This document shows, piece by piece, positions 27,383 to 27,405 of a stretch of 64,000 nt of DNA. The stretch is from Escherichia coli (GTDB lineage Bacteria > Pseudomonadota > Gammaproteobacteria > Enterobacterales > Enterobacteriaceae): NCBI RefSeq assembly GCF_044324875.1, contig NZ_CP172185.1; one strand, given 5' to 3'. The position numbers were made by a program, and so were the translations under genes. The notes beneath the pieces are model-generated. The model had not been told where the DNA came from. It did not search any database and saw only the letters and a program-made list of their open reading frames with translations. How positions within the stretch are numbered: position 1 is the first letter of the stretch; the number at the start of each line of letters is the position of its first letter.

Positions 27383-27405
27383 GTGTCCATTACAATGATG
27401 GACAC
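27383..27405. repeat. perfect 8-bp inverted repeat with 7-bp spacer (GTGTCCAT-N7-ATGGACAC) just downstream of the LRR gene
   Basis: Read directly from sequence; no adjacent U-tract on either strand. Confidence 0.5.

Follow-up and report, generated by a model that had tools for sequence, protein, structure and literature searches.

A perfect 11-bp inverted repeat downstream of dadX in Escherichia coli as the probable hairpin at the 3' end of the dadA-dadX mRNA

A perfect inverted repeat located between dadX and a leucine-rich-repeat (LRR) gene was studied in a stretch of 64,000 nucleotides of the Escherichia coli chromosome (contig NZ_CP172185.1), which is termed the window. Taken together, the data indicate that the repeat probably functions as an RNA hairpin marking the end of the dadA-dadX mRNA. 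It is most likely an ordinary element, a hairpin that defines the 3' end of an operon mRNA, and a previously unannotated palindrome thereby joins a class already known. By itself this is of little consequence. The history of the locus goes slightly beyond that, in that a horizontally acquired island appears to have displaced the ancestral terminator hairpin, and a hairpin from foreign DNA would now end a core metabolic operon. This island hairpin would keep its role at the end of dadAX even in strains that later lost the LRR gene. In addition, one insertion sequence (IS) has entered the hairpin loop repeatedly, and the 63 strains in which the hairpin is naturally disrupted could be used for tests of its function.

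The initial annotation had described an 8-bp perfect repeat, GTGTCCAT-TACAATG-ATGGACAC, at 27383-27405, and direct reading of the sequence gave an exact match at this position. The repeat is real, but it is longer than was described: the perfect arms are 11 bp each, and the full repeat, ATAGTGTCCAT-N7-ATGGACACTAT, occupies window 27380-27408. The features of the locus are listed here in order of position.

26204..27274, plus strand: dadX, encoding the catabolic alanine racemase, last gene of the dadAX operon (Pfam Ala_racemase_N/C; RefSeq annotation of a 99.8% identical locus).
27284..27335, plus strand: degenerate upstream hairpin AGCCGGAT...ATCCGGCT (from comparison with E2348/69 and outgroups, and from K-12 Term-seq).
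27326..29494, no strand: E. coli-specific insert (LRR island) between dadX and cvrA, with approximate boundaries; the sequence in common with the HH45-type locus stops at 27326 and restarts at 29494.
27380..27390, no strand: left arm of the repeat, ATAGTGTCCAT, from direct reading; T>C at 27386 in O157-type and P0033-type alleles.
27391..27397, no strand: 7-nt loop, TACAATG in the source strain, the most variable part of the repeat and the point of IS3-family insertion.
Equivalent of 27391-27397, both orientations: loop insertions of the IS, from junction reading (loci L089, L092, L094, L099 and L106-L108).
27398..27408, no strand: right arm of the repeat, ATGGACACTAT, invariant across all alleles examined.
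27409..27508, plus strand: C-rich, G-poor stretch (31 C, 16 G), a candidate rut region, antisense to the 3' end of the LRR gene.
27412..27413, plus strand: predicted 3' end of the mature dadA-dadX mRNA, homologous to K-12 1240087/1240088.
27442..28878, minus strand: LRR gene of 478 amino acids, its stop codon 33 nt from the hairpin.

The dadX gene (plus strand) and the LRR gene (minus strand) are convergent, and the 167-bp spacer between them holds the repeat. The LRR stop codon, TAG on the minus strand, lies at 27442-27444 and is separated from the stem by 33 nt, for which the earlier figure of about 40 bp was a fair estimate. Only a single copy of the repeat is present in the 64-kb window, even with two mismatches allowed. 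In Markov-simulated sequence, perfect 8-bp repeats with loops of 3-10 nt are expected about 8.6 times per 64 kb by chance, and the 8-bp version is therefore not significant. The 11-bp version is expected 0.1 times per 64 kb, with at least one present in five of 60 simulations. Four other perfect inverted repeats of at least 11 bp are found in the window (9583-9609, 11539-11564, 52018-52043 and 54466-54493), and the one at 52018 is shaped like a bidirectional terminator, AAAATCCACGC-AATT-GCGTGGATTTT. At least two of these four, the repeats at 11539 and 52018, match sequences given as RNA 3' ends in published K-12 tables, and these matches serve as a positive control.

The stem comprises 11 perfect base pairs with a predicted stability of -13.6 to -15.8 kcal/mol; four of the 11 pairs are G-C and the base of the stem is A-U. 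Folding of 61 nt as RNA gave -20.8 kcal/mol for the plus strand (z = -5.3) and -20.1 kcal/mol for the minus strand (z = -2.85). The hairpin is more stable on the plus strand, since U.G and A-U pairs, two extra pairs within the loop, lengthen the stem on that strand only. An Rfam E-value search of 26800-29600 returned chance hits only. Near the repeat, a scan for promoters and terminators made a sole call, a weak hairpin on the plus strand, at 27435-27456, overlapping the LRR stop codon; the repeat itself was called on neither strand.

The relationship between the repeat and a transcript end was established from published RNA data, all of them from K-12, whose locus is without the LRR gene. The K-12 copy of the repeat lies at NC_000913.3 1240055-1240083, and positions were transferred to the window through an ungapped alignment in which the position in the K-12 locus (L002) plus 23324 gives the window position. 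In a SMRT-Cappable-seq study of full-length primary transcripts, the dadA-dadX transcript starting at 1237524 ends at 1240088 and that starting at 1237537 ends at 1240087 (PMC6131387 Supplementary Data 1). Of the transcripts starting at 1237524, 17 reads end at 1240088 and 15 run past it with a median overshoot of 4.5 nt, and both dadA-dadX ends were typed 'novelTTS', that is, as lying outside the terminator catalogue used (PMC6131387). A TRS analysis of two independent RNAtag-seq data sets also reports a plus-strand terminus at 1240088, assigned to dadX, and the structure given upstream of it is the same hairpin, with a stability of -17.4 kcal/mol and a longest U run of three (PMC10687069). 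The K-12 hairpin is already in published transcript-end tables, as an uncommented row. The ends at 1240087/88 lie 4-5 nt beyond the 11-bp stem, and the equivalent position in the window is 27412/27413 on the plus strand. Note that one Term-seq study (Adams et al.) lists plus-strand ends at 1240019/20 and none at 1240088 (PMC7815308); the ends at 1240019/20 lie 10 nt after the degenerate upstream hairpin, equivalent to window 27344/45. The arms and the tail TTTCCCCGGAACCTGA are identical between K-12 and the window, with three of the seven loop positions differing, and from the identical arms and tail we infer that the source strain would have the same 3' end.

These transcript data bear directly on the idea that the palindrome arose by chance and has no biological role, which is now improbable. 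It is true that about nine such 11-bp repeats are expected per 5-Mb genome, by extrapolation from the simulation, and that the repeat is dispensable in many strains. However, three transcript-end data sets put the end of the dadAX mRNA directly after the repeat, and one IS has been inserted at its exact centre on at least five independent occasions (see below). The initial annotation had proposed that the motif could be dismissed if it were absent from homologous loci and had no effect on 3' end formation. Neither proved to be the case, as the motif lies beside every LRR allele examined (77-95% identity) and is tied to a measured RNA 3' end; that end belongs, however, to dadX on the plus strand and not to the LRR gene, beside which the motif had originally been placed.

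How the end would be made was considered from the sequence that follows the stem. It had been stated that no U-tract follows on either strand, and this was nearly correct. On the plus strand, the 11-bp stem is followed by UUUCCCC (UUUCCCCG), or by UAUUUCCC when only the 8-bp core is counted as stem. The minus-strand sequence after the stem is CAUGGGAAA (tail CAUGGGAAAUGG, CAUGGGAA), in which there is no U-tract. On neither strand are there five or more U among the eight nucleotides directly after the stem. The 100 nt downstream of the hairpin on the plus strand have a C/G ratio of 1.94.

The involvement of Rho was assessed using published bicyclomycin data for K-12, in which a Rho score of 43, calculated over 800-nt windows, is assigned to 1240513 on the plus strand (PMC7815308). 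The numbers of reads upstream and downstream of this position were 392 and 9 in untreated cells, and 303 and 300 in treated cells (PMC7815308). This is among the stronger Rho signals on the plus strand in this region, although the read-through transcripts could start elsewhere, for example at the ymgM promoter. The Rho-dependent region at 1240513 is itself located within the 3' end of cvrA and antisense to it, at about 29700 in the window, and transcription out of the dadX-cvrA spacer would normally be halted by Rho near this point.

Given the U-poor tail, the C-rich composition of the next 100 nt and the read-through under Rho inhibition, two readings fit best: a stem-loop that protects a 3' end dependent on Rho, or an intrinsic terminator of low strength. 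Analysis of these features favours the former, and most likely Rho ends transcription farther downstream, after which the RNA is trimmed as far as the hairpin. According to this model, the repeat would be transcribed within the 3' untranslated region of dadA-dadX on the plus strand and would fold into a stem-loop of 11-13 bp with a stability of about -16 to -18 kcal/mol. RNA polymerase would pass the hairpin and enter untranslated, C-rich RNA antisense to the LRR gene, and Rho would stop transcription in this C-rich region beyond the hairpin. Exonucleases acting 3' to 5' would then trim the transcript back to the hairpin, which would shield the message, and the stem-loop would in this way determine where the mature dadAX mRNA ends, 4-5 nt beyond it, at the predicted position 27412/27413. 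The Rho step at the dadAX end is suggested by the bicyclomycin data. An alternative for this part of the mechanism would be weak intrinsic termination at the UAUUU tail.

A fully intrinsic mechanism, in which the hairpin is a Rho-independent terminator of dadAX, the UAUUU tail releases the polymerase directly and the mapped end is the point of termination itself, is possible but unlikely. The RNA end lies 8 nt past the 8-bp G+C-containing core, or 5 nt past the full stem, which is a typical distance for an intrinsic terminator, and for most of the SMRT-Cappable-seq reads that run past the dadAX site the median overshoot is only 4.5 nt. Nevertheless, the tail contains only three or four U in eight nucleotides and then CCCC, only four of the 11 pairs are G-C with A-U pairs at the base, and the consensus terminator scan makes no call. 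Moreover, an efficient Rho-independent stop is argued against by the bicyclomycin experiment, in which downstream coverage equalled upstream coverage.

The position of the repeat with respect to the minus strand was also considered. From the sequence, the hairpin may also stand at the 3' end of the LRR mRNA, 33 nt past its stop codon. Taken further, the hairpin could primarily be a terminator or stabiliser of the LRR mRNA that was imported together with the LRR gene, in which case the dadAX end would be a by-product. The location of the hairpin within the LRR island, 33 nt past the LRR stop codon and at a fixed distance in all LRR alleles, would agree with this, as would the only sequence variant found in the arms. 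This is a T>C change at 27386, the sole arm polymorphism among the alleles examined, which is carried by the O157 type, whose exact 61-nt haplotype was counted in 309 genomes, and by a single LRR allele. In plus-strand RNA the change produces a C.A mismatch and weakens the fold from -15.6 to -10.5 kcal/mol; in minus-strand RNA it produces a G.U pair, takes the fold from -13.6 to -13.0 kcal/mol and is better tolerated. Set against this, a U-tract is missing from the minus-strand tail CAUGGGAAAUGG, folding is weaker on this strand (z = -2.85 vs -5.3), and the hairpin persists in about 3400 genomes after loss of the LRR gene. A primary role in the LRR mRNA is thus held only as a doubtful alternative to the end of the dadA-dadX mRNA. 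Transcript-end data from EPEC E2348/69 were considered as a possible test in an LRR strain and were set aside, this strain having the ancestral short spacer and no repeat.

The distribution of the locus was studied in 5426 complete E. coli genomes. The full LRR gene is present in 834 of these, while in about 3400, including K-12 and O157:H7, the gene is mostly gone and its last 70-110 nt are retained together with the repeat. The repeat is absent from about 1130 genomes (approximately 21%). It is dispensable, then, and not essential: about one-fifth of E. coli genomes are without it, and 63 carry a copy split by an IS. The phylogroup-B2 strain E2348/69 has a short dadX-cvrA spacer with a GC-rich hairpin and no repeat. 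A short spacer with a GC-rich, REP-like hairpin is also found in E. albertii, in one cryptic Escherichia lineage and in three Citrobacter species, and neither the repeat nor the LRR gene was found in any of these. These short spacers without the repeat place it within an E. coli-specific insert, about 55 bp inside the left boundary (~27326), and comparison with the insert-free loci thus bears out the initial annotation, which had located the repeat within a putative insert. In E. coli with the insert, the ~50 nt that directly follow dadX look, from their sequence, like a degraded form of the ancestral GC-rich dadX-cvrA hairpin. The present hairpin would have come with the LRR island and replaced the ancestral one. 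Membership of the REP, or palindromic unit, family was ruled out for the repeat, which has a median of one place per genome, and the REP-like hairpins of the outgroups differ from it in sequence.

The initial annotation had also raised the possibility of a recombination-related site. As an island boundary or att site this does not hold, the boundary being about 55 bp away; it does hold in the narrow sense that an IS3-family element repeatedly enters the centre of the loop. It is extremely improbable that the repeat is the att site or a terminal repeat of whatever element brought in the LRR island. Although it lies near the left end of the island and is targeted by the IS3-family element, the island boundary is found some 55 bp to the left, at 27326, the right end, near 29494, has no matching repeat, and the end points of three independent variants, produced by deletion or replacement, are elsewhere, at 27515, 27553 and 27326.

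Other rearrangements were observed at this locus. The repeat-free HH45-type locus (L003 2553-2680) contains about 130 bp of unrelated, G+C-rich filler with palindromes of its own, CCCGGCGCCGGG and GGAACCGTTCC, and the motif GTTGATTAACAGG is common to this filler and the O157 deletion junction. A fragment annotated as 'IS1414 (partial)' in K-12 (L002 4189-4290) is also present at window 29379-29478, in the opposite orientation and with 83% identity, and the opposite orientation implies that an inversion, or a rearrangement mediated by an IS, was part of the event that deleted the LRR gene in K-12. Within this fragment lies the start of ymgM, which encodes a small protein of K-12. A search of the literature for dadX together with cvrA, or dadX together with LRR, found only engineering uses of the spacer and the small protein YmgM.

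The LRR protein carries IpaH/SspH-like repeats of 20 residues and an acidic, leucine-rich C-terminal tail, and is without an NEL ligase domain. Its close homologues are found in E. coli or Shigella only, and the three alleles that were fetched are all at the dadX locus; the homologues therefore give no independent genomic context. The alleles are 437-480 amino acids long and share 77-95% protein identity, while the flanking DNA is 95-100% identical. Such divergent alleles amid near-identical flanks suggest diversifying selection or allelic exchange.

Conservation of the repeat itself was then analyzed. The spacer is constant at 167 bp, and 97% conserved, in LRR alleles down to 77% protein identity. 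Four loop variants are known (TACAATG, TAAAATG, TAAAAGG and TAAAAGA), the haplotype of the window being present in 557 records and that of K-12 in 1802. No compensatory changes were seen, the diversity within the species being too low to yield any, and for this reason conservation alone proves little. The repeat is single-copy, with a median of one place per genome in 4298 genomes; the palindrome pattern did not occur in viral contigs, and of all the loci fetched only the dadX locus has it.

The suggestion in the initial annotation of a dimeric protein-binding site found no support in these comparisons, there being no promoter-like site nearby, a single copy per genome and one mutated arm in 309 genomes. 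An operator for a dimeric DNA-binding protein would agree with the perfect dyad symmetry and the 11-bp arms. However, the site lies between two converging 3' ends and stop codons, where the scan finds no promoter-like site, it has a single copy in E. coli genomes and none in viral contigs, and one of its half-sites is mutated in 309 genomes. In addition, the centre-to-centre spacing of 18 bp would place the half-sites on different faces of the helix, and the measured RNA end already explains the structure. An operator is thus very improbable, and an RNA hairpin at the end of the dadA-dadX message remains the preferred explanation.

The role of the loop as an insertion target was explored by reading IS junctions. 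An IS3-family element of 1420 bp (transposase WP_088538007.1), which contains a programmed frameshift, is present exactly at the loop centre in 63 of the 5426 E. coli genomes, with 29 genomes having it in one orientation and 34 in the opposite one. The ends of the element are TGAACTGCGCCCCAAAGGTTAGACACC ... GTTGTCCAAGATCTGGGGCGCAGTTCA, and a search with these end sequences matched no named element. The junctions occur on four haplotypes of the loop, in which the 3 bp at positions 3-5 have been duplicated, reading AAA, TTG and TTT. Together, the four haplotypes, the duplications and the two orientations imply that the element inserted independently at least five times, on the dyad axis in every case. 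The element has 256 chromosomal places in the collection, about one-quarter of which are in the dadX hairpin loop.

Further insertion sites of the element were drawn from genomes and metagenomes. One target, GTGT(CCA)CCAGCG-CA-CGCTGGACAC (GTGTCCACCAGCGCA|CGCTGGACAC), lies inside a DMT transporter gene (L091, L096, L101 and L103) and has received at least four insertions, in both orientations; another reads GCGTCCAT-CTATATTG-ATGGACAC. Two more sites start with (A/G)TGTCCAT, with 5-6 nt before the IS, and the sites in L102, L098 and L100 adjoin IS66-family-like genes. Palindromes of the GTCCAT...ATGGAC type are common to the recurrent targets, and the sub-terminal parts of the inverted repeats of the IS contain TTAGACACC and TTGGACAAC. 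This resemblance suggests that the transposase may choose targets that look like its own binding sites. On balance, we lean towards GTGTCCAT-N7-ATGGACAC being a sequence-specific landing site, in which the transposase would recognise GTCCAT...ATGGAC (like TTGGACAAC / TTAGACACC) and insert on the dadX repeat's dyad axis. If this is true, the behaviour would parallel that of IS1397 in REP loops, except that the target is single-copy and not a REP, and each insertion would abolish the natural hairpin at the 3' end of dadAX.

As described in the cited account, IS1397 and ISKpn1, both of the IS3 family, insert into REP sequences (PMC1525189). On that description, the dadX site is similar in being an extragenic palindrome at the end of an operon, the loop of which is entered repeatedly and precisely by an IS3-family element. 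It is different in that the dadX palindrome is single-copy, A+T-rich and without the REP consensus, and in that the other targets of the present IS have GTCCAT...ATGGAC in common and not a REP sequence. Since IS1397 and ISKpn1 were already known, insertion into the loop of this palindrome is a new example of known behaviour.

With respect to termination, the hairpin was compared with two known types of 3' end. It resembles intrinsic terminators, including those shared by convergent genes, in its position between convergent genes and in the short distance, a few nucleotides, from the stem to the RNA end. It differs from them in that the U-tract is only UAUUU/UUU followed by CCCC, the minus strand has none, and the G+C content of the stem is low. 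Dar and Sorek (2018) described Rho-dependent transcripts whose ends are stable stem-loops lacking U-rich tails; rut sites follow directly, and the stem-loops shield the RNA from PNPase and RNase II (PMC6061677). Here too, a stable stem-loop without a U-rich tail lies directly before a precise steady-state 3' end, C-rich sequence is found just downstream, and read-through occurs in the region when Rho is inhibited. Note, however, that the dadAX hairpin is A+T-rich at its base and a perfect 11-bp palindrome, and that the Rho signal has a resolution of 800 nt. On every feature testable here, the dadAX hairpin fits the description given by Dar and Sorek.
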